From a virus, in the IMG/VR virus record IMGVR_UViG_3300031578_004185, positions 3,779-67,778 of that record: a stretch of 64,000 nucleotides of DNA. One strand, 5' to 3'. The stretch's first letter is position 1, and each line of letters opens with the position of its first letter. The notes under the pieces are model-generated. The model worked only from the letters and a program-made list of their open reading frames with translations, searched no databases and had not been told where the DNA came from. Both the position numbers and the translations under genes were made by a program. This document shows positions 24,353-49,902 of this stretch, in pieces.

Positions 24353-24370
24353 GTATTAAGGTTTCCCTTC

Positions 24371-25321: not shown

Positions 25322-25558
25322 CTGTCTACCTCTTTTTTATCAAGGCATTAACGTAGGATTTCAAATCGTCTCTAATTTCTTGTCTGGTTTTGTGTCCTTT
25401 GGTACCATGAGATTTGTATATTTCGTGTGATAGATGAGCCACATAGTAGCTGGTACCACGTAGTCCGTTCCTCTGCACCCATAGCCTAAGCCTCTTACGA
25501 ACGCAGAATCTTTTGTTGGAGCTGTCAAATACTGCTATCTCTGCGAAACTCGTGTTAC

Positions 25559-26734: not shown

Positions 26735-26745
26735 AATATTCCCCC

Positions 26746-27765: not shown

Positions 27766-28469
27766 AACATTTTCTCCTTCTTGTTGGTGATTATATCCAA
27801 GCTATCCTTCCCACAATTAAATAATAAATCAATTACTGATAGATAGGGGACAAATTCCCCGTAGAGTTGCCCGTACACAGGATGCTGGTAGTCGTGATAT
27901 GTTAGCTTGATACCATTCTGGGCAAATGCTCGTTCGCCCTCCCCAGTCAAGTAGTTCCTACCAGCGCTTCCCTCCAAGAGTTCGTCGGCCCCCAGTTCTA
28001 AGCAAATATTTACCATCCGGTGTACCTTGTCACCGTCAATACACAAGTCGCTGGAGAACTCCATCCTAGACTCTATCCCCAAGATGCTCCTCAGTTCTCT
28101 AATGAGGGTCAAATCAACATCAATCAGGTACTTCCACTCTTTGGAATACATCTCACAGAACACGTCATAGTAATCCGCAAAGAACGGCGCTTTAGAGTAG
28201 TTTTGCTGGATACTCCTCAAGTGATTCTTCCTCCAGTTGGTACTGTTATCTATCAGCACATCTTTGATTAGAGACGTGTAATTTCCTTTGGTTGCCACTG
28301 GAATGGTCAACCACTGTACTCCTTGATGAGTCTTGATTCTGTTTCTGTTTCTCCAGCTGCGCCTATCATACTGGACATCATCGTACACAACAAAGATATC
28401 ACTCCTAACCATTTGATCAAAGAATCCTAACCAAGGGAGGTATCCAGGTTGAAGTACTACAAGCCTCAT
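27762..28469 (-). CDS. WbqC family protein
   Basis: QPGYLPWLGFF...DDVQY...WRNRNRI, SVIDLLFNCG. Confidence 0.92.
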   Translation of the reverse strand: MRLVVLQPGYLPWLGFFDQMVRSDIFVVYDDVQYDRRSWRNRNRIKTHQGVQWLTIPVATKGNYTSLIKDVLIDNSTNWRKNHLRSIQQNYSKAPFFADYYDVFCEMYSKEWKYLIDVDLTLIRELRSILGIESRMEFSSDLCIDGDKVHRMVNICLELGADELLEGSAGRNYLTGEGERAFAQNGIKLTYHDYQHPVYGQLYGEFVPYLSVIDLLFNCGKDSLDIITNKKEKML

Positions 28470-29452
28470 GTTTCCAGAACTCCTTTAGTTCGTCTTTGTT
28501 CGGCAACTTTCAGCACGTTCTGATAATTATAGTTCCAAGATATATATTTCCAAGCGGAACACTTACTGCATACACCAATCTCGTCATACCTGCCTTCCAA
28601 TAACAACTTCCGGTATAGGTTGAACTTCTCTCCTTTCCAAATACTGCTGAGAGATTCATCCATCACATTACCCATATTAGTTTCCCCAGCGACGTCATGA
28701 CTACACAGCAACACTTTGCCCCTACTATCAATTTCAACCCTCTCGAACGGATATGGACAAGGCACTCTGTTAGTAATAAATGGTATAGTATCTCCAGATT
28801 CGGATGCGTATTTATCATCCCAAGTAAGATACTTCCTAACTTGGACATTGTCTACGATACCATTCCAGAAGGCCACAATGGAATCCAGTTTACCAGCTAT
28901 TACTTTCTGGTTAATTATGCTAGCTATTATCTTGGTGTTGCCTCTTATGGCATCCCTCTTCTTTGCAAGGTATCGCACATTACGGACTAGTTTATCAAAT
29001 TTCAATCCCACCCTGATCTTGGCGTAGGTTTCTCCATCGGCTGCGTCGGCACTGATGTCAATGGCGTCAATTCCCACATTCAGCATTCTGTTCACTTTGT
29101 CTGGTGTCAGGAGAGATCCATTAGTAATAAGCCCTACCCTCGCGTTGACGGACTTGGCGTACTTAATCAGCTCAATCACTTGTGGATGAAGCAACGGCTC
29201 GCCGCCGCCAGTAAGACGAAGCAAAGAGCCGAACTCACCACATTCTCTTGCTATCTTCTTAAATATCTCAGGTGGCATGAACGGGGCATCCCCGTAACTC
29301 CCCCTGATACTGGCGGACTGTGTATAGGGGCAGTGTGGGCATCTAGCATTACATACATAGGAAACGTTCACCGCTACCATTAAGGGGAACTCCTCGGCTC
29401 CCTCCTTGATTCCGTAGACTATCGGCAGGTGACTCATTTCAGTGATTTCCAT
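28466..29452 (-). CDS. Radical SAM/SPASM-domain protein
   Basis: CNARCPHC, GGGEPLLH, CPYPF...LCSHD...CSKC; probable start ATG 29452. Confidence 0.9.
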   Translation of the reverse strand: MEITEMSHLPIVYGIKEGAEEFPLMVAVNVSYVCNARCPHCPYTQSASIRGSYGDAPFMPPEIFKKIARECGEFGSLLRLTGGGEPLLHPQVIELIKYAKSVNARVGLITNGSLLTPDKVNRMLNVGIDAIDISADAADGETYAKIRVGLKFDKLVRNVRYLAKKRDAIRGNTKIIASIINQKVIAGKLDSIVAFWNGIVDNVQVRKYLTWDDKYASESGDTIPFITNRVPCPYPFERVEIDSRGKVLLCSHDVAGETNMGNVMDESLSSIWKGEKFNLYRKLLLEGRYDEIGVCSKCSAWKYISWNYNYQNVLKVAEQRRTKGVLET

Positions 29453-29834
29453 TACGATCTCCCTGTTCTGTTTTTTGACTCTGCATTTCCGCCAGTATCT
29501 CTTTAACATCAGCGAGTTCCTTTTCCATTTTCTCAAATATGTCACGGAAAGGACCCCCCGAGTCCCATGACTGCACGTTGTTGGCTCTATAGAAGGAGGG
29601 CAACATAAATACCCACTCAAGTATGGCCATAATAATTACAATCAAGACTAATACCAAACAAAACACCCAGAATGACAACGGTATCCCCCATGCCGTGAAT
29701 ATGGGGTTTATCGTTGTATAGAAACTCATTACTCCTACCAATGCAAGAGACAGCCAGCTCGCATAAGGACTTATATTGCCTATAACTATCTTAACTGCTC
29801 CCATGAATGTACCTGTCTGACGTTGCCTAAACAC
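29439..29834 (-). CDS. Small membrane protein (2 TM + coiled coil)
   Basis: Hydrophobic helices; start may be ATG 29804. Confidence 0.6.
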   Translation of the reverse strand: MFRQRQTGTFMGAVKIVIGNISPYASWLSLALVGVMSFYTTINPIFTAWGIPLSFWVFCLVLVLIVIIMAILEWVFMLPSFYRANNVQSWDSGGPFRDIFEKMEKELADVKEILAEMQSQKTEQGDRNGNH

Positions 29835-30943
29835 TATTCACCTCCCTTTAGATCTTCTAGCAGTTTGCAGTATTGGTCGGTTATTTCATTCCACGAGAAC
29901 AGCTCCAATACCCGCTTCCTACAGGCTTTCGCCATCCGTTGGGCAGCTTCTTTATGCTTCAGTGTCCAAGATATAGACCGTTCTAAGTCATCCACGTTCC
30001 CCGGCTCAATCAATAGCCCAGTAGTTCCCGCCTGTATTATTTCTTCTGTTCCTCCAACACTTGTGGCTATCACGGGAATACCAAACGACGCGGCCTCCAT
30101 CACTGCTGTTGGTAACCCCTCCGAGTATGATGGGTTAACAAAAATACGAGCCGAACGGTAAACATCGTCCAGTTGCTTCCCCGACAACTCCCCAAGAAAT
30201 TGGATACTGTTGCTACCGCCAGCAATCTCCCGCAACTGCCTCCGATACGGACCATCCCCGACAACCACAAGTGGAAGCCTCCCACCTAGTCGCTTGTGGG
30301 CTTCAATCAGATCCTGAACGCCCTTCGCCCGTACCAATCTGCCGACATAGAGTATTGAATCCGCCGTACCGGCAACGTTGCCGTTACCCACTATTCCATT
30401 AGAAATTCTGATTGTTCCCCGTGCCCCCAAATGCTTGGCGAAATTACAGGCAGCTCCGGATACTCCGACCACTCGCTCGGCTCTTCGCATGATCCAGCTC
30501 CCGATACTATGATCGTATGCTTTGCTGATAAGGTTGATCGCTAGATTTGCCACAACAGCATGACGGGAACCCCTTTCCACGTGAACTAGTGGCAACCCAT
30601 GCAACGCCGAGAAGACAACTCCTACAAAGGACAACACAAAGAATCTTGTCTGCGTGATAACTACATCGTAGTCACGTTTCCTCGCTAAGACACTAAGCAA
30701 CATTTTGGATGGCAATGGTACAGGGTACTGCCTATCCAGTAGAAGTAGACTCGGAACACGCCTGACCTCCACCCCGTCTATTGCCTCAATTGCTAGTGAG
30801 TCACCCAATTGACATGTGATCACATCCACTTGATACCCTCGCTCAACCAGCCTCCGGGACAACTCCAGTACGTTCTTTTCGTAACCCCCGACGTGTGGTG
30901 GGAAGAAGGACGCCCACACCAACAATCTTCTGGTACTACTCAC
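29834..30943 (-). CDS. GT4 family glycosyltransferase
   Basis: PPHVGG, YVGRLVRAKG, EGLPTAVMEAA. Confidence 0.92.
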   Translation of the reverse strand: MSSTRRLLVWASFFPPHVGGYEKNVLELSRRLVERGYQVDVITCQLGDSLAIEAIDGVEVRRVPSLLLLDRQYPVPLPSKMLLSVLARKRDYDVVITQTRFFVLSFVGVVFSALHGLPLVHVERGSRHAVVANLAINLISKAYDHSIGSWIMRRAERVVGVSGAACNFAKHLGARGTIRISNGIVGNGNVAGTADSILYVGRLVRAKGVQDLIEAHKRLGGRLPLVVVGDGPYRRQLREIAGGSNSIQFLGELSGKQLDDVYRSARIFVNPSYSEGLPTAVMEAASFGIPVIATSVGGTEEIIQAGTTGLLIEPGNVDDLERSISWTLKHKEAAQRMAKACRKRVLELFSWNEITDQYCKLLEDLKGGE

Positions 30944-35962: not shown

Positions 35963-37069
35963 TTAGCTGTCATCCGCCCTAACTCGCGTAGAAAGTTGTG
36001 GGGCCGACTTCGAGTTGTAAATTTTGAAATAACACGGGTAGTCTACAACCATCTTCGGTCTCTTCCCAGCTAACTTCAATCCTAGCCCTTTCAGGGTACC
36101 CAACACCTCGTCCTCGGTCATATCCCCATCAGTAGCCAGCAGGTCTACCATCTCTTCGTAGTTGTCAACACCTGCCCTCAGTACCTCTAGGACAATCCGT
36201 TCTTCGTCCGTTTCCGGCTGGTACCGCTTGCCATACTCGGTGATTCGTATCTTCCCATCTCCCAGATGGCTTCTCGGTCGCCCGGCGTCTACCGGTATCG
36301 GGAATGGCCGTCCTATCGGTAGTATCAAGTCCTTTCGCTTGTCGTATGCCACTCTCTGCACATAGTAAACGAATCCTGTGATATTGGCGGCGGACTTGGT
36401 ACAGGTTACCATCCAGTTGATGTAGGGCTTCGCGGTAAACCTGTCCAAGTCATCCGTAGTCTGTATCGTTCCCAAGACGAAGCTATCCAGATGCCTGTAC
36501 ACCTTATGGATAGCCCCCATCGTCTTGTTCATGGGACTGTGAGGTTCTCGTTTGTAGCAGTACTTCCAGAACTCGGTGAGGTACAGCACGGAGTTTTTGA
36601 GCATAATCTCCCCCGCACCCTTTACCCACTCGTCGGCAGCCTTCTCCAAGACTGCGTTGACATCGGCTACTTTCGCTACTCCCTTCGTTGCCTGCCTCAT
36701 CTTGGCGAAGTCGTCGTGGAGGACATGTTCATTGAACAACCCGCCATAAGGTCCGTAGAGGTCTCTAGGCGGTTCATCACGCAGTATGCGCTTCCATGGG
36801 AAGTATCGCTTGATAGTGTGGCTCAGGTAGTTACCGAACAAGTCCTTACCTGTGCCAGGGACACCATACACGACACACAAGCCCCACAGACCAGTCACTT
36901 CCCTTGGCACAGTGAACAGGCGGTATAGCAAAGTAGCTCGCCGCCTGTCTAACATAGACAGATCGGAGCCGAACTTGATTCCCGACTCGTCGTCGTACCC
37001 TACAGATTCGTCGTAGAGTTCAAAGGTATTTCTATCCGGCTTATTCCTTCCCCCAAGCGTCGACACCAC
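35963..37069 (-). CDS. Zot/pI-like (FtsK-HerA clade) P-loop morphogenesis/packaging ATPase
   Basis: Walker A GVPGTGKD, Walker B-like VLYLTE, YRHLDSFVLGTIQTTDDLD motif; C-terminal wHTH-like region. Confidence 0.75.
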   Translation of the reverse strand: MVSTLGGRNKPDRNTFELYDESVGYDDESGIKFGSDLSMLDRRRATLLYRLFTVPREVTGLWGLCVVYGVPGTGKDLFGNYLSHTIKRYFPWKRILRDEPPRDLYGPYGGLFNEHVLHDDFAKMRQATKGVAKVADVNAVLEKAADEWVKGAGEIMLKNSVLYLTEFWKYCYKREPHSPMNKTMGAIHKVYRHLDSFVLGTIQTTDDLDRFTAKPYINWMVTCTKSAANITGFVYYVQRVAYDKRKDLILPIGRPFPIPVDAGRPRSHLGDGKIRITEYGKRYQPETDEERIVLEVLRAGVDNYEEMVDLLATDGDMTEDEVLGTLKGLGLKLAGKRPKMVVDYPCYFKIYNSKSAPQLSTRVRADDS

Positions 37070-37541
37070 CAGCTTCCTCTCCTTCTTCGCTCCTAGACTC
37101 CATCTCCGCTAGAGCGATATCCGTAATCTTGGTCAAGTTTATCCCGCCGATAGACTTCTGCCACAAGGCTGTCCTGTGGAGCAGTTCGTCCAGCCAGTTC
37201 GATGTTGTGGGTCTCGCCTTCTTGAAGACCCGCTTGTACTCATCCCTGTCCTGTCTGTAAACAGCAATACTTATTACGTCCTCCCAGATGACGTTTATAA
37301 CATCAATGAGGGGAAACAGTCTCCCTTGGAACTTATCGATAACCGTAACCGAAGGAAGCATCTCACGGGACGGCGCGAACGCTAAGTCCAGAGCTTTATC
37401 TACAGCGGCTGACGAAACGCGCACCTCCTCGGGTTTATCACCCGGTTCGGCGACCTCCTCCTTCTTTCGCCTCAACCTAGCTGGATCTATCTTCGGTTTA
37501 GTATCCTCTGATGTGGTGGCAGTAGCATCCTTCTTTGCCAT
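37041..37541 (-). CDS. Hypothetical protein (morphogenesis module)
   Basis: 166-aa ORF overlapping the ATPase start. Confidence 0.7.
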   Translation of the reverse strand: MAKKDATATTSEDTKPKIDPARLRRKKEEVAEPGDKPEEVRVSSAAVDKALDLAFAPSREMLPSVTVIDKFQGRLFPLIDVINVIWEDVISIAVYRQDRDEYKRVFKKARPTTSNWLDELLHRTALWQKSIGGINLTKITDIALAEMESRSEEGEEAGGVDAWGKE

Positions 37542-37573: not shown

Positions 37574-38347
37574 CTATTGTACTCCTAGCGCATTCCGGAT
37601 CTTGGCGACATCATCAGCTATCTTGGCTACATCCATACCCGATATGTTAACCAGCTGGTATATCACATAACCGAGCAAGAGCAGTATCAGTGCCAGCCCG
37701 ACATAGACGACAGTCGGGTTGAGTTGTCTCCCCAGTTTCTTAATCGCGTCCTGTAGAGGGTTCATGATATCCTTAGCTACCGTAACGGCCAGTTCAGATA
37801 CTTTCTCTTTGGCTATATTCCCCAGCACAGCAGGACTGGCTACCATCTCCCTAGTGGGCGCGGTCTTTAACTCGTCAGCCATATCCAGCAACTGACTCTT
37901 GACCTTGCTATCAGTCAGCGACTCGGCGAGTTCCCGCAACGAGTCCTTAACGTCAGGACTAGCGACACCCTCACTGTACGAACCTCGGTTAAGCAACGGT
38001 TCCCAGTCATTGGCATCCACGATGAGTGTCCGTATCTTGCGCTGGAGAAATGTAGGGATAAAGCCGTCCCCAGGGTACAGCATCTCAATCGTGCATATCT
38101 CGGCAAACGGCCACGTCTTGGTTGTGCCCGTCTTCGGATCGGTAATCGATACGCTAGTGCTTGTCTTTGGAACATAGTGTGTCGTCGTGCTTCCATCCGA
38201 CTCGCGGACAAGTAGTTTCAGCTCGTTATCTACTCTCTTGTGCCACTGCCACTGGTAAAAAGCAATCATCAGGACGAATATCACAAACAGGTAAAGGACG
38301 ATGTCTAGTCCGCTAAAATAAGTTGCCTCTACTTCTGGTCCAGTCAT
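37574..38347 (-). CDS. Membrane protein with N- and C-terminal TM
   Basis: Two terminal hydrophobic helices. Confidence 0.75.
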   Translation of the reverse strand: MTGPEVEATYFSGLDIVLYLFVIFVLMIAFYQWQWHKRVDNELKLLVRESDGSTTTHYVPKTSTSVSITDPKTGTTKTWPFAEICTIEMLYPGDGFIPTFLQRKIRTLIVDANDWEPLLNRGSYSEGVASPDVKDSLRELAESLTDSKVKSQLLDMADELKTAPTREMVASPAVLGNIAKEKVSELAVTVAKDIMNPLQDAIKKLGRQLNPTVVYVGLALILLLLGYVIYQLVNISGMDVAKIADDVAKIRNALGVQ

Positions 38348-38646
38348 CCGATCCCCCTTTCGAGTCTCCTTTGTTCTCGTTTTCTTAGTCTATCTATGCT
38401 CCGGCTATGCCCGATTCTCCTGCTAGATTCTCTCAAGTTATGCGTATCGTCTAACCTCTTGCCTCGGAGAAACGCACTCGCAGTACCCAAGTCACGCGTC
38501 GGGTACCGTTTCAACTCAAAGTTTGCCCCAGCCAGAAGCTCCAGACCCTTGCGACGAGCTTCCTCCTCGTTTACACCACCGTAAACGAGATACGGGCGAT
38601 TTTGGTCATAGGCTACGATCCAGTAATGGTATCTTCGCTCTCTCAT
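38344..38646 (-). CDS. Hypothetical basic protein
   Basis: Start reassigned to MRERRYHYW at 38646 (SD GGAGG). Confidence 0.6.
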   Translation of the reverse strand: MRERRYHYWIVAYDQNRPYLVYGGVNEEEARRKGLELLAGANFELKRYPTRDLGTASAFLRGKRLDDTHNLRESSRRIGHSRSIDRLRKREQRRLERGIG

Positions 38647-38735
38647 CTTTTCCTCCAAGCGAAGAACAGGTATGCGATAACGATAAAGGCAATGAGTACC
38701 ACAGACCACACAGAGAGAGAACTGAAATCAATCAT
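38643..38735 (-). CDS. 30-aa single-TM protein
   Basis: Manual: MIDFSSLSVWSVVLIAFIVIAYLFFAWRKR; SD GAGG; ATGA coupling. Confidence 0.55.
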   Translation of the reverse strand: MIDFSSLSVWSVVLIAFIVIAYLFFAWRKR

Positions 38736-38752
38736 TGTTCAATACCTCTTGC

Positions 38753-38797
38753 AAAAAAGGGACAGAGAGTACCCTTCTATGGAGTACTCTCTGTCCC
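38753..38797 (-). terminator. Rho-independent terminator after capsid-like gene
   Basis: 14-bp perfect stem GGGACAGAGAGTAC/GTACTCTCTGTCCC followed by T-run. Confidence 0.9.
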
Positions 38798-38819
38798 GTT
38801 CGCCCGGGAGGTGCCATTC

Positions 38820-39005
38820 TTAGCCCTTCCTCCCGATTGACATGACCACGCCTATCAGGATCGCGGCCGCCACGATCACCCGGAGCAGGTTCTGGAGGAT
38901 GACGGAACCAGTATCGGTTCCGGTTATGATGTTGGTGATGAGGCTGTCAATCACGACGAAAGCTACAACGCCGATTACGACGGTAACAAGTCCTCGTACT
39001 GACAT
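38820..39005 (-). CDS. Putative major capsid protein, spindle-virus-like helical hairpin (61 aa)
   Basis: Two hydrophobic helices joined by NIITGTDTGS loop, basic C-terminus; own promoter and terminator. Confidence 0.6.
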   Translation of the reverse strand: MSVRGLVTVVIGVVAFVVIDSLITNIITGTDTGSVILQNLLRVIVAAAILIGVVMSIGRKG

Positions 39006-39050
39006 TAACTATCACCTTCCTTCTCGGGCTGGACGGCCCTGTTAAAAGTT

Positions 39051-39079
39051 ACTTTAGCACTTGTGTTCTGTTTTGTCAA
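39051..39079 (-). promoter_or_regulatory. sigma70-type promoter for capsid-like gene
   Basis: TTGACA, 17 nt, TAAAGT with TG extension. Confidence 0.8.
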
Positions 39080-39114: not shown

Positions 39115-40989
39115 TTACACTCTCCTTCCACCTGCCAACGACATAACGAACCCGACAATCATTCCGGCGGCAACCACTATCCAGATGTAGGATAGCGCGG
39201 CCAGATCCGTTCCCAAAAACCCGAGCGGTAGAGTGGAGATAGTTAGTATCAGGTCAAGCAACTTGGCAGGGAACGTGATAAATCCCATAACACCCGCCGT
39301 GTCTGCGATGCGGGCTATCTTGTAGTCTATACTGGCATTCAGTATCGCTGCCTCTCTGGTACGGACGGTAGCGTTCTCAGCATGGGTCGCTGCGTCCGTA
39401 TCATGCTCCCCTCTGGTTAGCGGGTTAACAGTGAGCGGTCCGACTGTGGTACTCTCGAAGGTAGTATCCGTCTTGGAGGGGTAGCCGATATGCTCGTCTC
39501 CAATAACTACAAAACCGCTATCCGGGAAGCCATCCGTGCTGGCTACGTTGATAGTTGCAGTCTCCGTGTCCGTAACAGCGGATGTAAGGTAGGTCGCTAC
39601 CATCGCATTACTGCCCGCAGCGTAGTTCCCGGCGATGGACACGATAACAAACATCCACAACATAAACATAAAGCCTTTGTGGAGGGTCTCCGAGCGGAAG
39701 AACAAGACATAACCAACGAAGGCACCACTAGCTATAAATAACAAAGAGGCGACTAACGGAGACAGCATACCGAGCAATGCTCCTCCGACTATCATTATGG
39801 AGAATACAATCATCACCGACTTGCCACTACCTACTCCCTCGCCGCGACCAGCACTCTCGCCGAACTCGCCACTGGGGGTTTCTACTTTATACACAGCAGC
39901 GCACACCAGCAAAGTTATCAGCATCCAGACAATCCCGGAGAGGAACCACCGAGACATACCGAATGTAGCAGCCAGCGTGGTCAGGTCGATACCTGTGCCC
40001 GTCACGGAGGTATCCATTAAGGTGATTGTGGTAACTTCCTCTACATCCACCGTGAACGTCCCTGCCCCGGTAACAGTCAAGGTATTTATACCTGGGGTCA
40101 GGTCAATAGGGACACCTGCGATTGTTCCCGTGCCGTCGTCTATATCGCCGAATGTCCACCCAGCGAGGTCTATGATGATAGTGCCAGTAGTTACCCCCGT
40201 GTCTATCGTATTCACCCCCTCGGTTAGTGTTACGGGCGAACCGACTATGGTCGCCCCGCCACTGGTCGCTGCCCCCCCGAAAGCGGTGTCGTAGTCCAAC
40301 GGTGTGTACTCGGGGTCGGTCTCCACGCTAGAGAACGCATCAGGAGCAATGTCCCTGAGATGCGGAATAGTGTTAGCGAAGTAACTCTCACCGAGAGTAG
40401 TCAGGGTACTCCCACCTCCGTATATCTCCTGTATCAAATCAAGCGACCAGAGTACTTCCAGCACGTCGGCGTAGTAAAGAACGCGTAGAGCAATAAGACT
40501 GGATGGGTCGCCCACAGTACTCCACTGGTCAATACCCGCTATCGTCTTGGGCGGGTCGGGACCCGGCACCCATCCCAGAGCAGGGTTACCGGATAGCCAT
40601 ACTTCGTGGAGGGCAATGTTGGTGCTGTCCAGTCCGTACGCAGTCGCTTCGGCGGCGGTGAACCGTATCCATATCAGTCCCCTGCCATAGCCGCTATCCT
40701 GATAAACGTATGGTGCTACCGACTTTAGCTGGGTAGTCCCGTCCGTGTCCACGAATATCGCCATATAGGCCTCGGCTGCGGTCTCGCTGGGGAGGGCTGC
40801 GTAGTCGAGGTAGTAGTCAACGAGGACACCGACGTCCCCGTCCTCGTAGCAGTTCTCGTAAACGTAGACGGCGTTGATAGACGGCGCACTATCAGGATCG
40901 GCGATGGCGTAAACAAGAGCAGGAGCGACCAGTATAGCCACAAGAGCAATCAGAGGGACGATTATAATTCGCTTCACAAGCCTTATCAT
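39115..40989 (-). CDS. Exported acidic protein with several C-terminal TM helices (virion/membrane)
   Basis: Start reassigned to MIRLVKRIIIVPLIALVAILVAPALVYA (ATGA overlap); beta-rich ectodomains. Confidence 0.75.
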   Translation of the reverse strand: MIRLVKRIIIVPLIALVAILVAPALVYAIADPDSAPSINAVYVYENCYEDGDVGVLVDYYLDYAALPSETAAEAYMAIFVDTDGTTQLKSVAPYVYQDSGYGRGLIWIRFTAAEATAYGLDSTNIALHEVWLSGNPALGWVPGPDPPKTIAGIDQWSTVGDPSSLIALRVLYYADVLEVLWSLDLIQEIYGGGSTLTTLGESYFANTIPHLRDIAPDAFSSVETDPEYTPLDYDTAFGGAATSGGATIVGSPVTLTEGVNTIDTGVTTGTIIIDLAGWTFGDIDDGTGTIAGVPIDLTPGINTLTVTGAGTFTVDVEEVTTITLMDTSVTGTGIDLTTLAATFGMSRWFLSGIVWMLITLLVCAAVYKVETPSGEFGESAGRGEGVGSGKSVMIVFSIMIVGGALLGMLSPLVASLLFIASGAFVGYVLFFRSETLHKGFMFMLWMFVIVSIAGNYAAGSNAMVATYLTSAVTDTETATINVASTDGFPDSGFVVIGDEHIGYPSKTDTTFESTTVGPLTVNPLTRGEHDTDAATHAENATVRTREAAILNASIDYKIARIADTAGVMGFITFPAKLLDLILTISTLPLGFLGTDLAALSYIWIVVAAGMIVGFVMSLAGGRRV

Positions 40990-43826
40990 AAGGTCGGACT
41001 CCTTTCGGACACGACACCCGCAGCGAATAGTATTATGGACAAAACTACCAGATAAAGAGGGAATATGTTGTGGTCGAAAGCGACCAATCCTCCCAGTGCG
41101 ACCCCCGCGATAATTACCACGATACCTCGATGACCTCGTAACCACCGAGCTGCTCCGACTGTAACGAACAGCAGGAACGCCAAGCCGAGCCAGCGCCATA
41201 CCCATATCTCGGTCAGGGTAGTGTTATCGGATACCATCGTGATAAACGGACGGACAGGGTTAGCCAGCGTCGCCGCTTTGGTTACCGTTCCGTCTCCATG
41301 TATATCTCCCCCTGCAGGCGTAACGAGTATGTCTCTGGTCTCCCTATCCTCGGCTGTTCCCGGTGCAGGTTGGTCTTCAGCAGTAAAGCTACCGAGGGCG
41401 ACGGCTACTCCTGTGGGGTTAACCCCCCAAGTTATTCTGCCGTCGTTAGCACCAGTCTCGTCTACTACAGTCCCGAAGTCGACAGTGAAGGTGTCGCCAG
41501 CGTCTACGTTAGCCGTAAGAGCAGCAAACTGTAGCTCGTCAGTAGCGGCGAGGAAGTCGGTAATCACCGCCGTTTCGCCTTCAGGGGCAAGACCATCGGT
41601 GGTCTCGGTGATTATCAATCTCGCCCCGTTCCAGTAGTCGTCAGCCTGTGTGAGAGCAGCGTCTATAATCTTGACATCGGTACTACCCGCGTCGGCGGTA
41701 CTGTCCTCGCCAGTATTGTCAACTATCGTGTCGGGTTGGTATTTTAGTACCTCTGCCCCGCCGACATCAATGGTCATATAGTCCATATAAGGCATAACAT
41801 TGTTTTGCATCAATAACCAGTCATTAGCAGTGTTAGGAACACTCGCTCCTAATAGTCTAGCATCATCTTCCATAGTCCCATCAATAGAAATACTTAGTGT
41901 ATGTGGTCTAGTACCAACAATCCAAGATGTGTTTGCGCCTGCTGTGCCTGCGTTTGCCCCAGAGCCGTAAGAGGTTATATTAACTCCTGTCCCCTCATCA
42001 ATATACCAGAAGTCTGTCTCATCCCCCGGTGGTGTGCCATTATACAAAGCTGTCTCTTCAGCAGCAGATAAATCATCTGTCCCAACACAGAAATCACATA
42101 TACTCCCGATGAACGGGCTCGCACTGCTTGTATTTGTATAACAGCCTATATAAAAGTTATTTGTAGTGCCGATTGCCTCGGCGTTTGCGTTAGTATCGGC
42201 AACCCCGTTATCTACTCTCAATCTTGCTCCATTACTGGCAGCACCACCACCAACTGCCTGCCCCATACTGGCAATTACATGATACCACTGCCCCCCATTC
42301 CAACTAGCTTGGGTACTGTAATAAGCAAACTTTGTAGCACCTGCTACTACGTTATTAAAATAGAGCTTCCCGTTGAAGCTCCTGAGGTAAAGATTAAAAG
42401 TAGTTGTCCCGCTATACTTGTTAAACAAATACATATTATCGTCTGCACCAGCCTCATAGTCCTCATCCAGTTTGAACCAGAAGCTAATCCACAGTTTAGC
42501 TGAGGCGTCATAAATATCACCGCAGTCTATTCCTTTATTAGTAGCATCGGGGAAGTATAGTAGTGTCCCTTCAGCTAGATTGGAAGTTGTCCCTGCTTTA
42601 GTGTTGATTGTATATTCACCACTGTCAATACTTGTGGCAGTTACATCTAGGTCAGCTGGACAGATAGCTATAGTGTTAGACATCCACTGTTGTCCTGCCG
42701 AAAGAGTAAAAACTCCCGGGTCATCACTTACTGCATTTAACTCTCGCCTAGCACTGCCTATAGCTACACCCTCAGCATTAGCAGCAACATTGTTAAGCCC
42801 ATTCCCATAGTTGGCAGGATAAGCATTGACAGTTACGTTGTCATCATTTAGTTCCATAGCAAACCACAGCGTATTTCTAGCACCCCACGAAGGTACTAAG
42901 TTAGGGGGGTCAGGATTAGCACTATTCCCATTGGTAGCGACCCCGTTTTCTGGCACCTCTGAATAGCCAGTAATGCGGTATATAGTGTAAGCAGTCATTT
43001 CAGCAGCATCGGTAGTAACAGTGAAAGGGTCATCTTCGCTAGCACTAGCTACCTTATACCAAGCCCCACCTCTAGCATCTGGTGCACCAAAAGTGTCCTT
43101 CTGAAACAGATTAGTCCATCCTCCGGGAAAGGCTATAGCAGGAGTCCCATCAGTCCCAAAGAACACTAACAGTAGGTCGCCAGCTACAACCCCAGCAGGT
43201 AGGTTAACAGTATGGTTCAGTCCATTAACGGCGTTATTGCCACCATTAGTTGTTGCAACGGTAGGAAAAGCTCCTCTATGTATCAGTGCAGAGGTAATCT
43301 CATCTTCAGCACTAACATAAGTCCTGAAAGCATCTTCTTTATAAACCAAGTTCTTATCAGCACCAGCGTCAGTATTGATATACCCGCTCTGCTCAATCTC
43401 AAAGGTATCACCAAGCTCAATAGTAGCGTCATCAGGGATAGTTATGTACCCGTCATGCCCGGGGATAATATCCATACTGGAAGCAGGAGTGCTTCCCGTA
43501 GTGTAGTAGAGATTGACCTGCGAATCGGCAGGGACGGCGGTAGCAGTAAGTGTCCTGTCTTGGGCAACCATCCAAGGCTTCTCGGAACCCCCCAAGGTCT
43601 CGACACGGGTATCCAGCGCGTCCGCTCGCATAAAGCCGTTATCCGCCATCCATTGATTATTGGCGTCGGTCTGCGTCGCCAGCATATCGTAGGCGTTGCC
43701 GCTATCCTCGGTGATAGCGAACGAGGCACTGTACGCAGCAGCTAGCACAGGAGCCGCAACAACTACCAGAGCGAGGAACACCAAGGCTAACGATAAAACA
43801 CGACTAAGTAGCTTGGTCTTAATCAC
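40986..43826 (-). CDS. Exported LamG/ConA-domain protein with C-terminal TM anchors (putative spike/tail)
   Basis: Signal peptide; WISFWFK...WYHVIAS...FYIG...FIGSICD LamG pattern; 3 C-terminal TMs. Confidence 0.75.
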   Translation of the reverse strand: MIKTKLLSRVLSLALVFLALVVVAAPVLAAAYSASFAITEDSGNAYDMLATQTDANNQWMADNGFMRADALDTRVETLGGSEKPWMVAQDRTLTATAVPADSQVNLYYTTGSTPASSMDIIPGHDGYITIPDDATIELGDTFEIEQSGYINTDAGADKNLVYKEDAFRTYVSAEDEITSALIHRGAFPTVATTNGGNNAVNGLNHTVNLPAGVVAGDLLLVFFGTDGTPAIAFPGGWTNLFQKDTFGAPDARGGAWYKVASASEDDPFTVTTDAAEMTAYTIYRITGYSEVPENGVATNGNSANPDPPNLVPSWGARNTLWFAMELNDDNVTVNAYPANYGNGLNNVAANAEGVAIGSARRELNAVSDDPGVFTLSAGQQWMSNTIAICPADLDVTATSIDSGEYTINTKAGTTSNLAEGTLLYFPDATNKGIDCGDIYDASAKLWISFWFKLDEDYEAGADDNMYLFNKYSGTTTFNLYLRSFNGKLYFNNVVAGATKFAYYSTQASWNGGQWYHVIASMGQAVGGGAASNGARLRVDNGVADTNANAEAIGTTNNFYIGCYTNTSSASPFIGSICDFCVGTDDLSAAEETALYNGTPPGDETDFWYIDEGTGVNITSYGSGANAGTAGANTSWIVGTRPHTLSISIDGTMEDDARLLGASVPNTANDWLLMQNNVMPYMDYMTIDVGGAEVLKYQPDTIVDNTGEDSTADAGSTDVKIIDAALTQADDYWNGARLIITETTDGLAPEGETAVITDFLAATDELQFAALTANVDAGDTFTVDFGTVVDETGANDGRITWGVNPTGVAVALGSFTAEDQPAPGTAEDRETRDILVTPAGGDIHGDGTVTKAATLANPVRPFITMVSDNTTLTEIWVWRWLGLAFLLFVTVGAARWLRGHRGIVVIIAGVALGGLVAFDHNIFPLYLVVLSIILFAAGVVSERSPTL

Positions 43827-44344: not shown

Positions 44345-44476
44345 TTACTTGACCCCCTTACCGACTCTACTCCGCAGTTTTTTTACAAGGTACCGCATAA
44401 GTGGGACAACTGTGAACACTACTATCCCAATTAGAGCGTAAACAAACACTCCGAACGACGATGGTATTTCACTCAT
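44345..44476 (-). CDS. 43-aa single-TM protein
   Basis: Manual: MSEIPSSFGVFVYALIGIVVFTVVPLMRYLVKKLRSRVGKGVK. Confidence 0.55.
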   Translation of the reverse strand: MSEIPSSFGVFVYALIGIVVFTVVPLMRYLVKKLRSRVGKGVK

Positions 44477-47400
44477 AGTCTCACACTCCTTACCACGGTT
44501 GGCTGGTTGTCCCTTTTGCCGATCCGCTTCGGTTTCTTCTTGCTCATCTTAGCTCGGTTGACCCCCTTGCTACTCACGCCCTCTGTACTATGGGCGTCAG
44601 ACCCTCTGAGCCACCCGGGGTCCTCGTCAAAGTACAAGTCCCTTGGTTCGGGTTCAACCTGCCTTATTCTAGCAGACTCCACCCGCTCTTCAGCTACTCT
44701 CTTTCTCTCCTCCACTACCTCTGGACGATTAACGCCCCGCATCTCGATTTCCCCTTTTACCCTGTCAGGCTTGGTAGTAGCGGATATAGCCGTCCTTGAT
44801 ACGCTGTGAGCGGGCTTGACAGTACCAATCTCCGAGCGAGATATGCCTTGACTCGGCACGGACATGCCCTTCGTAGGACTGTCAACTCCTCTACCGACAT
44901 TGGTCTCCAGACCCTTACCACCGACCTCTATCCGTTGTCCATAGTCGCTGATAAAGAAGTCCACTATGCCGAAATCGGCATTAACCTTCTCAGGGACTTT
45001 AGCCCTTGGTTTGCCTATCATCTGCACCGTCCCCTTGACCGTCTTTAGGTGCGTGTTCTTTGCCCCCATTGGGACTACGCCTCTAGGGAGCGTCTGCATC
45101 TTCGGCTGGTCCCACGGAGGAGGTGCCCATCGCCAGAACAGACCATGCTTCACTGTAATGCTCCCCGGCGGTAACTCTGCTCGCTTACCGGATATCCGTG
45201 GTCTGACCAAGGCAACTGGTGGGGGCGGCGTAACAGGTATTATTCTGGGCGTCGGTCTAGGGGTCACCACAGACATAATAGGTGTTTTCACAGGCGTAAC
45301 CGGCGTTTTTCTCGGTGTCTCTCTCGGTGTCTCTCTCGGTGTCTCTCTCGGTGTCTCTCTCGGTGTCTCCCTAGACGTTGTTCTGGGAGTCGTCCTAGGT
45401 GTTATCTCGGGAACCAATCTTGGGGTGCCCCTAGCACTAATCTCCGGCACAGGCTCCCCTGCTACACGCGTTGGTGCGAACCCGGATGTGACTGGAACTC
45501 TCTCAGCGAAGATTGTTTGTTCCCTAGCCTCGGAGGGTGGGATTTCCCTAATTCCAGCCATAGCACGAGGAACTATTGGGATAACGCGCAACATTCTCCG
45601 TTCACGGAAAGGAACGAGGAAATCAGTAGGCCCGGCTCTTGGAACCTCAGCAAGTGTTGCTTTAACTCGCCTAGCATTGTCGTTCGAGGCGTACAACAAA
45701 TCCCGCTCAGGGGTCTTAAAAGTAGCCTTCAAGTTCTTAACATCCCTAGCCTTCTTTGCTCCCCGTAATATCTCATACTCAGGAGTTCCTTTGGGGTACT
45801 GCTTTATCCCCGCAGTCGGTAGGTGTTTATCCACCACAACCAACTTGGAAGTATCAAACCCCCGCTTGTAAAGTTCTATGTACAGAGACGGGCTGACGGC
45901 TGCTGAATCCCCGGAGCGAAGAACACGGACAGCACCAATCTCCGGCTCGTATACCCACTCTCTCGCCTTCCAGTCGTACCACTTGTTCATTGGTATCTTC
46001 AATTTCAGGCTAGCAGGTTCGCCGTCAAACATATATGTCCCAAAGGCGGAGTGTTCAGTGGTCTTGCCCATGTGGACTTCGGCAGGACGCATATTTTTAA
46101 CTCTAATCCCCAGTTCGGATATTATTTGCTCCTCAGCGAACTCCTTTAGTGTCCCTCTACCAAAGGGTCGACCAACTCTCGGTTGCCCTCTCACATCTAT
46201 TTGCCCACCGATGGTATTCCAGACTCCAGCAAGATCAGTCGCAGCCGTATCGGTTCCTACGATATATGCCCCCTTGATAGTGGGGTGTTTAAGCATCACA
46301 GCCGTTCTCGGAACGACCCAGTTATCACCGAATTCCCGTACCGGGTGATAGTATGGGTCTCTCGTTCGTACCAACCTACCATTTCGGTCAACAAAAGGAA
46401 CGTCAGCCAACCCAGAAGGGTCTCCGGCTTTCTCTAACTTGGAGGCTAATTCAGGGGTAGACAATCTTCGACTTGGGTCTCTACCTTCCAAGAACGCGCG
46501 GACAGCAACGTCGACAGGACTGGATTTCATCTCCTGCAACGTTATTCCCCGGCTGTACCACATCTTCGGCGAGGTGACGATATCACTAGCCCTAGCTCTT
46601 GGTCTAATAGCTTTGCCAGGGTCAAACCAGTTCTCTATCGCCACTTTAGGGCGACTAACGAATTTGGTATGATACAACTGTCGCATAGTTGGTAATACTC
46701 TGCCCTCGGCGATTGCCGCGTTCGTTGCCGTAATGACAATCGGCATACTCTGACCGGCTCTGATACGTTGCCCGGTTACTATATCCATACCCGCGATCGG
46801 GCTGTAAGTTGTTATGGTCGCCACTTCGGGCATCGTCTCCCCACCTGTGGCAACCTTATCTAACCTACGGACAGGAGCGAACACCTTGGAAGTAAACCCT
46901 GCAGGGGTAACCATCTCCAATTCCCAAGTGGGTCTAATTTCACCGCTCGGTTCTTGTGACCAGTGAAACTTGTAAACAGGGTAAACACCTTGGGGCAGAG
47001 CATCGGGATGCCCGGGAGGTAATAGTGCTCTCCGTTCTACTTCACGCCTGAGCAGGTCGTTCGCCGCGGATACGGGGTCGCCAAAGTTGCGCTTCTTGGC
47101 TGCCATCCATATCCTCTCGTTCCGCATCTGCTTAGAAACCGCTTCGTGGACAACCATAGGCAAATCCCGTATGTCTTTAGAGCTGTAGCGGAGCATTTTG
47201 CCACCAGGAGAATACCAATCCTTTATCTTAGGAATCGTATCCTTGGGTATCACGTAGTCCTTGAACTTGGGACTGGACGGGTTCTCTAAAAGTTCACGCA
47301 ATACCGTCTCCGCAGTCTTCTTGGTAACCAACGCACGATTGGCGACGCGAAATGAGTTGACTACTTCCTGCGGTATCTTGCCCAAGTACCACCCAGCGAC

Positions 47401-49902
47401 ATCGCCGGAGAAGTTGGGTGACCACCACTCCATTGAACCCGTGGGAGTGACATCCTTGCCGAGTTTGCCTATCTGCCGGAGATAGGTATTGATGTCGGGT
47501 TTAACGCTAAATAAAATTCGCTGGTCAAGAGACACCTGTGCTGGATTACTCCTAGCCCTGATAGATGTCTCCCTCGGTGTTCCCCCGACGACACCCCCTC
47601 TTACCGTCTTGATCTGACCTGTCAACTTGCTATACGACACAAACTGCTCAGCATAGGCAAGAGCGTCTTCTGGTCGCTTGAACATTTTGAGTGCTTGCTC
47701 TACGGCACGAGGGAGCTTGCCTCCGTATATCTTCTCCACCTGTTGTACCAAATCCACAGCATATTCAGGGGTCATAAACCCCTTCAACTGCGTCCTAGGG
47801 ATACTAATCTCCAACGACAAGTTAGGTGGCTCAAAACTCCCCGGACGTACAGCTTGGCGGACCTCCTTGAACACAAACTTGCCACCACCAATAGCGACAC
47901 CGGCAAACAAAAGGGCTTCGACACCAACAGCCAATACTTTTTCCGTGGGACTAGCTTTAGGGCTAAGAACGGTTTTTGCGGCGTCAGGTAGAAGCAGGAC
48001 GCCTAACCCGGCAGGTACACCCCTCTTTACTATCTCGCCTGTTAAGCGACCAACTGTTGTAATGGCACCCCGGGCAACGGTTGGTATCACTCTCATCCCC
48101 GTCATTCTCGCCAATGTTGCGGAACCGATTGAACTAACAGGGAGACCCAGCATCATAACATCCAGAGCAGCCACCAACCCACCGATAGCCCACTCTTTTG
48201 CTGTTACCCTCGTTCCATAGTTGTAATACTCCAACCCAGCCTTCAGGTCGTCAGATGTCTCATACCCTATATCCTCGGCAATAGCCTGAACCTTCGCCGG
48301 ATCCGCTTTGTCTAGTTTCTTGACATCGAACGAGCCATCGGGTTTCACATAATCGCGCAGGGCGGATAATTCAGTCTTATAGGTCTTTGTTAGCTGTGCT
48401 TTGGCTTCTGGTAAAGTCAACCGCTTCCCAATAGGGGTTGTAATCGGCTGTATCGGGGCAAAGAGCAACTGCAGGGCGAGGTTTTTGCTGGATATGTGTT
48501 CAATGTCTTTCGCAAAGGCGGAGAAGACACTACCCTTCGTCCAATCCTTGTCGAACAGGACGGCAACCGCTCGCTTTTGGTCGTCATTGAGTTGCCGATA
48601 GGCTTCAGTGTATGACCCCTTGACAGGCTTGATATCGAGGTCGTCTAAGGCTCTACCTAACGAGCTTAGTTCCCCAGAGGACAACCCAAGACGCCTCGCA
48701 AATCCTGTTCCGGTAGGTACAACACCCTTGTCTAAGTGGGCGGCGATACTACCAGTAGTTTTATTCCACTGAGTAACTGCGGACAGAATATCGTCCCCAA
48801 AACCAGCATCACGTAGTGTCTTCATTCCATCGGGGTTCTTCCGAACAAACTCAGCCATAGCAGGGAGCGTGTACTCGCGGAGTGAGGGACCGAACGCCCT
48901 CATATATGCCCCTTCGGGAAGTTTCTCCACGAAGCCAGCACTAGATAGTCGTTGCAGGGCAACCTGTTGTCTTGCATACGCTTTGGTGGTAGCAATCTCA
49001 CCCACCTTATACTTACCAGAGTACACCTCCCCTAATTCTTCCGGGGATAACCCCATCTCGTCCCTCTGCTTCGCAAACGCCTCCCACACTAGGACAAACT
49101 TGCCCTTTTTGATGTTCCCAGGGTCGTCGGGGTCAGGCATAAACGCCTTATACTTCCCACTCTGGATCTCGGCTAATTGCTTCTCGGCTTCGGCAAGGTT
49201 CTTGGCATATCCAGCAGAAACCTGCTGGGATATCCAGTCCTGTTTAGCCTTCTCTTGCCCTCTGGCTTGCGCAACAGTATAATATACAAAGCTCCCGTCC
49301 TTCTCGCCGGCGTAGACACTACCTCTAGGGACAAAACCCAGCTGGACAGCCCTATTAAACTTAGCCTTGCCTGTGAGTTTGCTATAATCTGCTAACTGCT
49401 TGTTGATAGTCTCGGATACCCTAGACGGGAGAGCGACATCGGAGTGAGTTTTAATGAAGTCCAGTTGCACAGCCAGTGGAGCACCGGCTTTTCGCATAGC
49501 ACTTAGCTGGATATCAGGTCTGGCTCCACGAACCTTGGCAGGCAGGTAAGCCTCAACCGTAGCAGGTCTCTCCTTGGTAGGAGGAACACCAACGAACTCT
49601 ACAGGCTCTGCAGGTGGAACCACAGCAGGTTCGGGAGCACCGATGAATTCTACAGACGCTTCCGCTTTAGCCCTTGCTTTCTCGGCTCTGGCTTTCTTCT
49701 CAGCCTCCTGAGCCTTGTAGGCTTCTGAACCCTTCCATGGTGTACCCTTCTTCCACGTCCCTGCTTTGCGAGCAGCTTTTTTAGCGTCTACTCTAGCTCT
49801 CTGCTCCGCTTTCTGCTTCGCATAGCTGGGTTGCGGAGTAGTAGGTGGTGCCGAGGTAGTCGCTACCGAGGTAGTCGCTACCCCTCTTGTATCATCAGCC
49901 AT
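44473..49902 (-). CDS. 1809-aa putative internal virion protein with TM hairpin, Nudix-like segment and C-terminal tag
   Basis: Hydrophobic region near aa 570-680; GGQID...EFAEEQIISELG; ETPR repeats; ends PTVVRSVRL. Confidence 0.75.
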   Translation of the reverse strand: MADDTRGVATTSVATTSAPPTTPQPSYAKQKAEQRARVDAKKAARKAGTWKKGTPWKGSEAYKAQEAEKKARAEKARAKAEASVEFIGAPEPAVVPPAEPVEFVGVPPTKERPATVEAYLPAKVRGARPDIQLSAMRKAGAPLAVQLDFIKTHSDVALPSRVSETINKQLADYSKLTGKAKFNRAVQLGFVPRGSVYAGEKDGSFVYYTVAQARGQEKAKQDWISQQVSAGYAKNLAEAEKQLAEIQSGKYKAFMPDPDDPGNIKKGKFVLVWEAFAKQRDEMGLSPEELGEVYSGKYKVGEIATTKAYARQQVALQRLSSAGFVEKLPEGAYMRAFGPSLREYTLPAMAEFVRKNPDGMKTLRDAGFGDDILSAVTQWNKTTGSIAAHLDKGVVPTGTGFARRLGLSSGELSSLGRALDDLDIKPVKGSYTEAYRQLNDDQKRAVAVLFDKDWTKGSVFSAFAKDIEHISSKNLALQLLFAPIQPITTPIGKRLTLPEAKAQLTKTYKTELSALRDYVKPDGSFDVKKLDKADPAKVQAIAEDIGYETSDDLKAGLEYYNYGTRVTAKEWAIGGLVAALDVMMLGLPVSSIGSATLARMTGMRVIPTVARGAITTVGRLTGEIVKRGVPAGLGVLLLPDAAKTVLSPKASPTEKVLAVGVEALLFAGVAIGGGKFVFKEVRQAVRPGSFEPPNLSLEISIPRTQLKGFMTPEYAVDLVQQVEKIYGGKLPRAVEQALKMFKRPEDALAYAEQFVSYSKLTGQIKTVRGGVVGGTPRETSIRARSNPAQVSLDQRILFSVKPDINTYLRQIGKLGKDVTPTGSMEWWSPNFSGDVAGWYLGKIPQEVVNSFRVANRALVTKKTAETVLRELLENPSSPKFKDYVIPKDTIPKIKDWYSPGGKMLRYSSKDIRDLPMVVHEAVSKQMRNERIWMAAKKRNFGDPVSAANDLLRREVERRALLPPGHPDALPQGVYPVYKFHWSQEPSGEIRPTWELEMVTPAGFTSKVFAPVRRLDKVATGGETMPEVATITTYSPIAGMDIVTGQRIRAGQSMPIVITATNAAIAEGRVLPTMRQLYHTKFVSRPKVAIENWFDPGKAIRPRARASDIVTSPKMWYSRGITLQEMKSSPVDVAVRAFLEGRDPSRRLSTPELASKLEKAGDPSGLADVPFVDRNGRLVRTRDPYYHPVREFGDNWVVPRTAVMLKHPTIKGAYIVGTDTAATDLAGVWNTIGGQIDVRGQPRVGRPFGRGTLKEFAEEQIISELGIRVKNMRPAEVHMGKTTEHSAFGTYMFDGEPASLKLKIPMNKWYDWKAREWVYEPEIGAVRVLRSGDSAAVSPSLYIELYKRGFDTSKLVVVDKHLPTAGIKQYPKGTPEYEILRGAKKARDVKNLKATFKTPERDLLYASNDNARRVKATLAEVPRAGPTDFLVPFRERRMLRVIPIVPRAMAGIREIPPSEAREQTIFAERVPVTSGFAPTRVAGEPVPEISARGTPRLVPEITPRTTPRTTSRETPRETPRETPRETPRETPRKTPVTPVKTPIMSVVTPRPTPRIIPVTPPPPVALVRPRISGKRAELPPGSITVKHGLFWRWAPPPWDQPKMQTLPRGVVPMGAKNTHLKTVKGTVQMIGKPRAKVPEKVNADFGIVDFFISDYGQRIEVGGKGLETNVGRGVDSPTKGMSVPSQGISRSEIGTVKPAHSVSRTAISATTKPDRVKGEIEMRGVNRPEVVEERKRVAEERVESARIRQVEPEPRDLYFDEDPGWLRGSDAHSTEGVSSKGVNRAKMSKKKPKRIGKRDNQPTVVRSVRL
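45311..45370 (-). repeat. 12-bp tandem repeat x5 encoding ETPR
   Basis: ctcggtgtctct x5. Confidence 0.9.

Follow-up and report, generated by a model that had tools for sequence, protein, structure and literature searches.

Can a membrane protein of 61 amino acids (aa) be the coat of a large DNA virus of bacteria? The question is raised by one short gene in a 64,000-nucleotide (nt) stretch of IMG/VR virus record IMGVR_UViG_3300031578_004185 (positions 3,779 to 67,778 of that record; hereafter the window, whose numbering is used throughout). The gene encodes a predicted helical hairpin, here called the hairpin protein. Nearly all known double-stranded DNA (dsDNA) viruses that infect bacteria either carry a tail or are built on a jelly-roll capsid. 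A dsDNA genome coated with tiny hydrophobic hairpins is considered a speciality of archaeal viruses. A preliminary description had taken the architecture to be known only from archaea, a premise partly outdated by a September 2026 preprint that proposes VP1-like proteins and a pI-like ATPase in Dehalococcoides elements named IME1 (Nesbo et al., bioRxiv 10.64898/2026.09.15.751708). We lean, with guarded confidence, towards the hairpin protein being the major coat protein of a bacterial virus that has no tail, is assembled at the membrane and has a linear genome of ~79.5 kb with inverted terminal repeats (ITRs). We favour this reading because the gene forms its own conserved unit, is tandemly duplicated in a relative and is under strong constraint, because larger proteins mimic the hairpin, because of the fold of a neighbouring ATPase, and because no other capsid system was found.

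The hairpin gene and its signals are as follows.
39051..39079, minus strand: promoter of sigma-70 type, TTGACA, 17 nt, TG-extended TAAAGT (scan, and conservation in five diverged relatives)
39026..39039, minus strand: small hairpin GGGCCGTCCAGCCC in the 5′ untranslated region (5′ UTR) (footprinting of upstream regions)
39012..39022, minus strand: Shine-Dalgarno (SD) sequence AAGGAAGGTGA (sequence and SD survey)
38820..39005, minus strand: 61-aa two-helix hairpin protein, candidate major coat protein (open reading frame and translation, AlphaFold2 hairpin, family, codon constraint)
38749..38797, minus strand: intrinsic terminator with a 16-bp stem, a 7-nt loop and a run of six T (scan)

The open reading frame (ORF) translates exactly as quoted in the preliminary description, into a basic N-terminus, a first transmembrane (TM) helix, an ITGTDTGS turn, a second TM helix and a GRKG tail. 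AlphaFold2, given the family alignment as input, predicts two helices spanning residues 3-27 and 31-60, with a predicted local distance difference test score (pLDDT) of 78. The separate transcription unit described earlier is likewise present, with its TTGACA-17-TAAAGT promoter and strong SD, except that the terminator stem contains 16 pairs and not 14. In the promoter scan, the promoter scores 10 of 12 matches, with TG preceding the −10 element, and the terminator stem (38797..38759, including 9 G-C pairs) is followed by TTTTTT. TTGACA, a 17-18-nt spacer, TAnnnT, the 5′-UTR hairpin and the SD are all kept upstream of the hairpin gene in five diverged relatives. Specifically, the 5′-UTR hairpin, a putative stabiliser, keeps its pairing while its sequence changes, and the SD reads GGTAGGTGA or GGAAGGTGA. 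At the same place downstream of the gene, the relatives carry a hairpin and T-run of unrelated sequence. Because the same elements recur upstream and downstream in five diverged relatives, these signals are more than chance, supporting the view that the hairpin gene is an autonomous unit with strong signals of bacterial type.

Genome-wide, there are ten perfect TTGACA-N16-18-TAnnnT sites, eight of which are intergenic and co-oriented with their gene block; seven of these eight (spacing N17/18) have the TG extension.
1581, 4320 and 8882, plus strand, and 60229, 54272, 54146, 50118 and 39079, minus strand: eight intergenic, co-oriented TTGACA-N17/18-TAnnnT promoters

Judged from their sequences, the eight are a uniform promoter class across the genome. 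In addition, an SD core of at least 4 nt was found in 44 of the 58 genes of the SD survey. The strong promoter at 8882 lies in a ~2.9-kb region of the plus-strand block (8315-11169) that is without an ORF of at least 100 aa.

The hairpin protein belongs to a family that comprises more than 220 clusters in metagenomes at 77-100% identity, on contigs of up to ~85 kb. An exhaustive search with a hidden Markov model (HMM) recovered distant members at 28-50% identity, which have the same architecture, turn and gene neighbourhood. The family plan consists of a short basic N-terminus, the first TM helix, a near-invariant I-T-G-T-D-T/S-G-S turn, the second TM helix and a short, often basic tail. Compared with five relatives, 24-35 of the 59 codons of the window gene differ synonymously and only 0-4 non-synonymously, while the other shared proteins of the same genomes are 36-62% identical. 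In a lineage whose ATPase is 65% identical, the hairpin protein is 97% identical. Silent sites near saturation around a frozen peptide therefore indicate purifying selection, as in lattice-forming subunits, and not recent transfer. On these sequence comparisons, the hairpin protein is by far the most conserved protein of the genome.

In a relative from Loki's Castle (L001), the whole unit, from promoter to terminator, is tandemly duplicated (L001:9634-9822 and 10001-10189); the two copies differ at four residues, and each has its own promoter and terminator. In three other IMG/VR relatives, the hairpin gene is split by an insert at one of two sites, the window copy being intron-free. Specifically, an insert of ~980 nt follows codon 10 in L008 (9014-10000) and L009 (9022-10000), and an insert of 297 nt follows codon 13 in L010 (9704-10000). 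The exons still encode the peptide, which is identical to that of the window in L008 and L010 and differs at two residues in L009. The L010 insert matches the Rfam group I intron model over exactly the insert (42 bits, E 1e-9), and the L008 and L009 inserts match it at 26-27 bits, all three scores being below the Rfam gathering score of 50. The ~980-nt intron encodes a 276-aa ORF with an HNH signature (L008:9150-9980), and when each boundary is moved by 1 nt, the 5′ splice site is preceded by U, the intron ends in G and the Val codon is kept. Strongly conserved genes are the targets of homing introns, which are characteristic of phages of bacteria. Contigs from a sediment library match the hairpin gene up to 38901 or 38904 and then continue into unrelated sequence; immediately past the conserved turn, 38901-38904 is a possible third site of insertion.

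No capsid, terminase, portal, tail or lysin gene was found in Pfam and PHROG scans of all larger ORFs, so that the absence of terminase, portal, HK97, tail and lysis genes noted earlier for the window now extends to the complete genome. Furthermore, six-frame HMM searches for the HK97 capsid, two large terminases and the portal (PF05065, PF03237, PF03354, PF04860), which detected their positive controls, gave nothing over the cut-off in the source contig of the window (G000) or in two collinear relatives (G001 and G002). Among the conserved proteins around the hairpin gene, there is no conserved soluble protein of 300-500 aa fit for a double jelly-roll capsid.

The hairpin gene lies within a putative morphogenesis module.
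44473..49902, minus strand: giant basic protein of 1809 aa that heads the module (large proteins at the same position in relatives)
40986..43826, minus strand: 946-aa exported protein with a Laminin_G_3/ConA-like (LamG) domain and C-terminal TM helices, candidate adhesin (Pfam E 1e-8, TM scan)
39115..41205, minus strand: multi-TM acidic protein, 696-aa ORF, with a hairpin-like C-terminal stretch of ~55 aa made up of a TM helix, an LGTD turn, a TM helix and GGRRV (tblastn, hhalign)
38344..38709, minus strand: basic protein, pI 10.3, ~100 aa from an internal ATG, directly downstream of the hairpin gene (49% in G001 and G002)
37574..38347, minus strand: conserved 257-aa protein with TM helices at the N- and C-terminus
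37041..37541, minus strand: conserved 166-aa acidic protein, helical-looking
35963..37069, minus strand: 368-aa P-loop ATPase (GVPGTGKD) with a Zot/pI-like and B204-like predicted fold (AlphaFold2 pLDDT 79, Foldseek)

The core common to G001 and G002 comprises the 368-aa ATPase, the 166-aa acidic, 257-aa TM and ~100-aa basic proteins, the hairpin protein, a 173-aa acidic protein and several TM or basic proteins. The LamG exported protein and the giant protein complete the module, even in a relative with as little as 48% identity in the hairpin protein, and a LamG protein stands at the same position in the distant relative L024. The ~100-aa basic protein is a possible DNA-binding partner.

The hairpin-like ending of the 696-aa protein is kept in L001, and a 321-aa protein of another relative (L004) ends in segments that mirror both helices of the hairpin. 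In hhalign comparisons with the hairpin protein, these C-termini gave E values of 2e-3 (696-aa protein) and 2e-4 (321-aa protein), against 0.16 for a control, the hydrophobic C-terminus of the 946-aa protein. The mimicry therefore suggests that larger proteins are anchored in a coat of the small one, and the 696-aa protein is a candidate minor virion protein of this kind. The ATPase, which has no TM anchor, is a candidate assembly or packaging motor on the strength of its model. Its top Foldseek match in the PDB is the N-terminal domain of Zot (2r2a, E 2e-6, template-modelling score 0.52-0.54 by target), followed by RadA and STIV B204 (E 5e-6), and its neighbours in the protein atlas are Zot-domain clusters. 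The C-terminal tag P-T-S-x-R-G-x-R-R is shared by the proteins at 13381-14673, 43823-44344, 44473-49902 and 52379-53455 and resembles the N-terminus of the hairpin protein, M-S-V-R-G; the likeness could reflect a common recognition or processing motif.

How might such a virus assemble? A short monocistronic mRNA would be made from the observed sigma-70 promoter and translated via the strong SD. Once inserted into the host membrane, the product would form a helical hairpin whose ITGTDTGS turn lies on one side and whose basic ends lie on the opposite side. Many copies would pack side by side around the DNA, and, as the mimicry suggests, the larger proteins with look-alike hairpins would join as spikes or terminal structures. 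The ATPase, to judge from its Zot/pI- and B204-like fold, may power assembly, packaging and release at the membrane, no icosahedral head having to be made beforehand, and the virus-encoded glycan pathway may decorate the exposed parts. The particle could be filamentous, spindle-shaped or pleomorphic; a spindle shape is a guess, and a filamentous or budding particle would agree just as well with the Zot/pI-like ATPase.

The genome itself extends beyond the window. The source contig has 68,001 bp, and a 79,543-bp ENA contig, 100% identical over 11.7 kb, represents the same virus and begins 98 nt further left; the right-hand end of the ENA contig is shared by a contig of a different sample. Read inward, this right end is 100% identical to nucleotides 1-117 of the source contig. 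The genome is thus bounded by ITRs of at least 141 nt that contain three to four GTGTAATCAC iterons (source contig 1-117; L040:25-141), and is therefore linear and complete at ~79.5 kb. A perfect promoter, TTGACA-18-TATAAT, stands at the right end (L040, about 173-205), with one of the iterons lying in its spacer. We rejected the 42% completeness that CheckV assigns to G000, since the ITRs define a complete 79.5-kb genome. CheckV values for the IMG/VR records of G000, G001 and G002 are 38-42%, and 100% for a trimmed record. The 'provirus' labels of G001 and G002 were also rejected, both contigs being collinear with the virus. The G002 record ends at a homologue of the 399-aa gene that borders a host-like glycan cluster, which suggests that it was trimmed at this border. 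Both the 'provirus' calls and the CheckV values look like artefacts of the host-like cluster and of a lack of reference genomes.

Outside the morphogenesis module, the main features are these.
2..1561, plus strand: divergent PolB-like gene adjoining the left ITR (Pfam DNA_pol_B_2 E 0.006; phrog_11768 E 6e-7)
15277..30943, minus strand: glycan-synthesis cluster of ~16 kb (Pfam)
54942..57644, minus strand: fusion of uracil-DNA glycosylase (UDG), 3′-5′ exonuclease and family A DNA polymerase (PolA) (Pfam E 3e-90; relatives among Bacillus phages at 25-27%)

The PolB-like protein has no sequence match in the PDB, so that protein priming is put forward tentatively. Replication and modification genes comprise the UDG-exonuclease-PolA fusion, methylases, ERCC4, a Sak4-like gene, MazG and a helicase. 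A 974-aa N6/N4 DNA methylase (L013:4682-7606; L040:7093-10017) has a faint LAGLIDADG match and may carry an intein or a homing endonuclease insertion. A NikA-like ribbon-helix-helix (RHH) gene lies near the right end; no integrase was seen and no tRNA genes were found in the genome.

Which cells does the virus infect? The source metagenomes of the lineage, which provide hundreds of contigs, are from soil, marine sediment (including Loki's Castle) and the subsurface. All named homologues of the viral DegT gene are bacterial, the best being in a Dehalococcoidales metagenome-assembled genome (MAG) at 66% identity. This gene is part of a syntenic sugar block.
25559-29620, minus strand: sugar sub-block of radical-SAM/SPASM, WbqC, 4,6-dehydratase and DegT genes, syntenic with Dehalococcoidales MAG GCA_016926705.1 (L027:4429-10387, L028)

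The four genes are 64.5, 61, 69 and 66% identical to those of the Dehalococcoidales cluster, in the same order, and the cellular contig is chromosomal, with a pst operon beside the sugar cluster. The hosts are probably bacteria of sediments. A bacterial host is well supported by sequence features, because the promoters have an extended −10 element, because group I introns with an HNH ORF are present, and because the named DegT homologues are exclusively bacterial. The bacterial signals of the preliminary description are thereby borne out by conserved sigma-70 promoters, intrinsic terminators, group I introns and bacterial nearest cellular genes. As for the Dehalococcoidia-like host that it proposed, Dehalococcoidia (Chloroflexota) is most plausibly the best available lead from the sugar-block synteny, which itself shows gene exchange with the Dehalococcoidales lineage, and not infection. 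Integrated copies give no host, because neither the hairpin protein nor the ATPase has a relative in the collection of species genomes. A profile of the window-type ATPase found nothing in 401 genomes of the class of the Dehalococcoidales MAG, and two Pfam Zot matches in that class were set aside as not IME1-like. In a 2.07-Mb genome of the same class (G296), a 57-aa ORF (G296:C1:375289-375417; L034, L037/L038) matches the hairpin profile with E 1.4e-5 and has the turn GNSTGDE; it lies in a recombinase-rich island beside a PilT-like ATPase. With no module around it, this ORF is a plausible distant homologue and serves as a lead only.

Several observations weigh against a coat role and against the kinship with known coat proteins that it calls to mind. 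The RNA evidence is a single 230-nt metatranscriptome contig of a relative, which is weak and no proof of transcription. No CRISPR, integration or Hi-C link to a host was found, and the ATPase and close hairpin homologues are not in the species genomes searched. The ATPase has no match to the Pfam Zot HMM and resembles B204, the packaging ATPase of an icosahedral virus, almost as well as Zot. In hmmscan, neither the window protein nor three distant members matched PF06281 or PF25665 at E<=10, while SSV1 VP1 and VP3 served as PF06281 controls at E 2e-19 and 2e-38; a six-frame search with phrog_11172 likewise gave nothing at E<=10. The hhalign probability was at most 1.5% against the single SSV1 VP1 and VP3 sequences and 0.2-0.4% against His1 VP21. 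In VIA-wide and the ESM Atlas, the hairpin model matched hundreds of unrelated alpha-hairpins at Z >5. A cryptic capsid protein is also conceivable among several large proteins outside the structure predictions.

The SSV1 VP1/His1-type architecture named in the preliminary description is thus retained as a two-helix plan and not as family membership. Profile and fold comparison did not uphold such membership: the hhalign results are non-significant, and a fold search cannot discriminate a hairpin because hundreds of unrelated chains match. A PDB sequence-profile search with the hairpin family found nothing, as did Foldseek with the model in the PDB, and the best BFVD match had E 3.6. One lead comes from a language-model atlas, in which the only Pfam-bearing clusters among the best 100 are His1_capsid (score 0.89) and VP1_VP3 (0.81); in the His1_capsid cluster, 11% of the members carry PF25665, and 184 features are shared. 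By analogy, the hairpin protein may work like a coat protein of spindle or filament type.

Four other explanations have to be weighed. The hairpin protein might instead be a membrane protein without a structural role: it could be a holin, exclude superinfecting viruses, remodel membranes or act as a chaperone of assembly. Class II holins generically have this build of two TM helices in a small protein with charged ends, Pfam gives one distant member of the family a weak holin match (E 0.046), and no lysis genes were recognised elsewhere in the scans. But holins are poorly conserved, and this is the most conserved protein of the genome. Furthermore, the gene has its own consensus promoter and terminator, is tandemly duplicated, has no adjacent endolysin and stands in the middle of the morphogenesis module in all relatives, and large exported proteins carry copies of the hairpin helices at their C-termini. 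We regard this explanation as unlikely. Improbable in our view is an icosahedral virus with an internal membrane, a much enlarged analogue of tectiviruses or sphaerolipoviruses, in which the 61-aa protein would be the most abundant membrane protein and the shell an unrecognised jelly-roll. The combination of linear DNA, ITRs and a PolB-like gene, which recalls PRD1 and sphaerolipoviruses, the resemblance of the ATPase to STIV B204 (E 5e-6) and the many small TM proteins in the module would fit. However, the conserved proteins near the ATPase (166-aa helical-looking, 257-aa TM, ~100-aa basic) include no soluble one of suitable size, and no capsid match was obtained in Pfam or PHROG. A 537-aa neighbour, for which the protein atlas gave nothing, has an N-terminal TM helix, and the proteins at its position in relatives have 592-2428 aa. 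In addition, large proteins anchored by hairpins better suit a coat made of the hairpin protein.

The remaining two are far more remote. Conjugative pilins are also helical hairpins with a short turn, and the NikA-like RHH gene recalls conjugation, so the genome could be a linear plasmid or conjugative element with a VirB2-like pilin extruded by the ATPase. Against this very improbable reading, no VirB4, coupling protein or relaxase appeared in any Pfam or PHROG scan, the replication module (PolA, PolB, Sak4, methylases, MazG) is virus-like, and IMG/VR classes the relatives as viral. It is just as hard to believe that the host is archaeal and the virus a large relative of halspiviruses or thaspiviruses whose bacterial-looking signals are coincidental. 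The ITRs, PolB-like gene, hairpin protein and glycosyltransferases do match His1, the habitat is rich in archaea, and the language-model neighbours include His1_capsid clusters. But the −35 element, spacer and extended −10 element are conserved across relatives and in eight promoters; terminators of the hairpin and T-run type, group I introns with an HNH ORF and a family A polymerase are present; and the sugar genes are nearest to, and syntenic with, a Dehalococcoidales chromosome. We accordingly keep to the reading of the hairpin protein as the probable major coat protein of a bacterial virus.

If that reading is true, an archaeal-style virion design exists in bacteria. The 61-aa protein is a sharp marker for the lineage and gives proteomics and cryo-EM a defined object of study; the group I introns in its gene are a natural splicing reporter.

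Among known systems, Tectiviridae (PRD1) and Sphaerolipoviridae share with this virus a linear genome, ITRs and many small membrane proteins, and their PolB of the protein-primed type and FtsK/A32-like ATPase may be matched by its PolB-like gene and P-loop ATPase; they differ in their recognisable jelly-roll capsids, of which no candidate was seen here, and in their size of 15-30 kb. Inoviridae have a tiny hydrophobic coat protein with a basic C-terminus (pVIII) that is assembled at the membrane by a Zot-type P-loop ATPase (pI), a plan to which the candidate coat protein and the putative assembly ATPase would correspond here. Their genomes are, however, circular single-stranded DNA of 4-11 kb without polymerases, in contrast to 79.5 kb of linear dsDNA with PolA and a PolB-like gene and an ATPase without a TM anchor.

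The likeness to SSV1 VP1 and VP3 lies in two hydrophobic helices and a Thr/Ser/Gly-rich turn, the hairpin protein having a short polar turn and a length within 60-90 aa. It extends to paralogous tandem copies and to a small basic protein encoded directly downstream, comparable to VP2. SSV1 differs in its circular, integrating 15-kb genome, in VP1 being cut from a longer precursor, and in a longer turn, whose Asn-x-Thr motifs we take to be glycosylation sites. With His1 the virus shares linear dsDNA, ITRs, a (here putative) type B polymerase, a two-TM hairpin protein of ~60-80 aa that is the major capsid protein in His1 and a candidate for that role here, a glycosyltransferase and large exported, C-terminally anchored proteins. 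The His1 plan of a linear genome with ITRs and PolB recurs here with firm ITRs, a weak PolB_2-type assignment and a presumed protein priming. Thaspiviruses (the Nitrosopumilus spindle-shaped viruses, Thaspiviridae) have the same features as His1. Both differ in having archaeal hosts and genomes of 14-29 kb, whereas bacterial promoters and terminators and group I introns are found here. It is doubtful, though worth considering, that the lineage is the bacterial counterpart, by common descent, of His1/thaspivirus-type viruses, which combine a linear ITR genome, PolB, a hairpin capsid and glycosylated terminal proteins. If so, the hairpin-coat design would span both prokaryotic domains and package an unusually large genome of ~80 kb here; a link to the halspivirus type would also bear on the movement of virion architectures between archaea and bacteria.

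The IME1 elements of Dehalococcoides and Dehalogenimonas have been proposed to be dsDNA viruses without tails, non-lytic and either budding or filamentous, that occur only in Chloroflexota (Nesbo et al., bioRxiv 10.64898/2026.09.15.751708). They are 21-28 kb, circular or integrative, and encode tyrosine and serine recombinases, a primase-helicase, and a pI/Zot-like ATPase that also resembles archaeal packaging ATPases, beside small TM proteins, one of which was likened to SSV1 VP1 (10.64898/2026.09.15.751708). By description only, the likeness to the present virus comprises the block of ATPase and small TM proteins (here 33512-39005), the absence of tailed-phage hallmarks, adhesin-like exported proteins and the association with Chloroflexota. 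The differences are a linear genome of ~79.5 kb with ITRs, PolA and a PolB-like gene, a 16-kb glycan cluster and no integrase seen. The idea of VP1-like proteins in Chloroflexota viruses is already published (10.64898/2026.09.15.751708) and is no longer unprecedented. What is new here is how large and autonomous the genome is, how extremely the hairpin protein is conserved and that introns lie inside its gene; if the coat reading is true, the IME1 exception is considerably extended by an autonomous ~79.5-kb genome with its own polymerases and glycan pathway.

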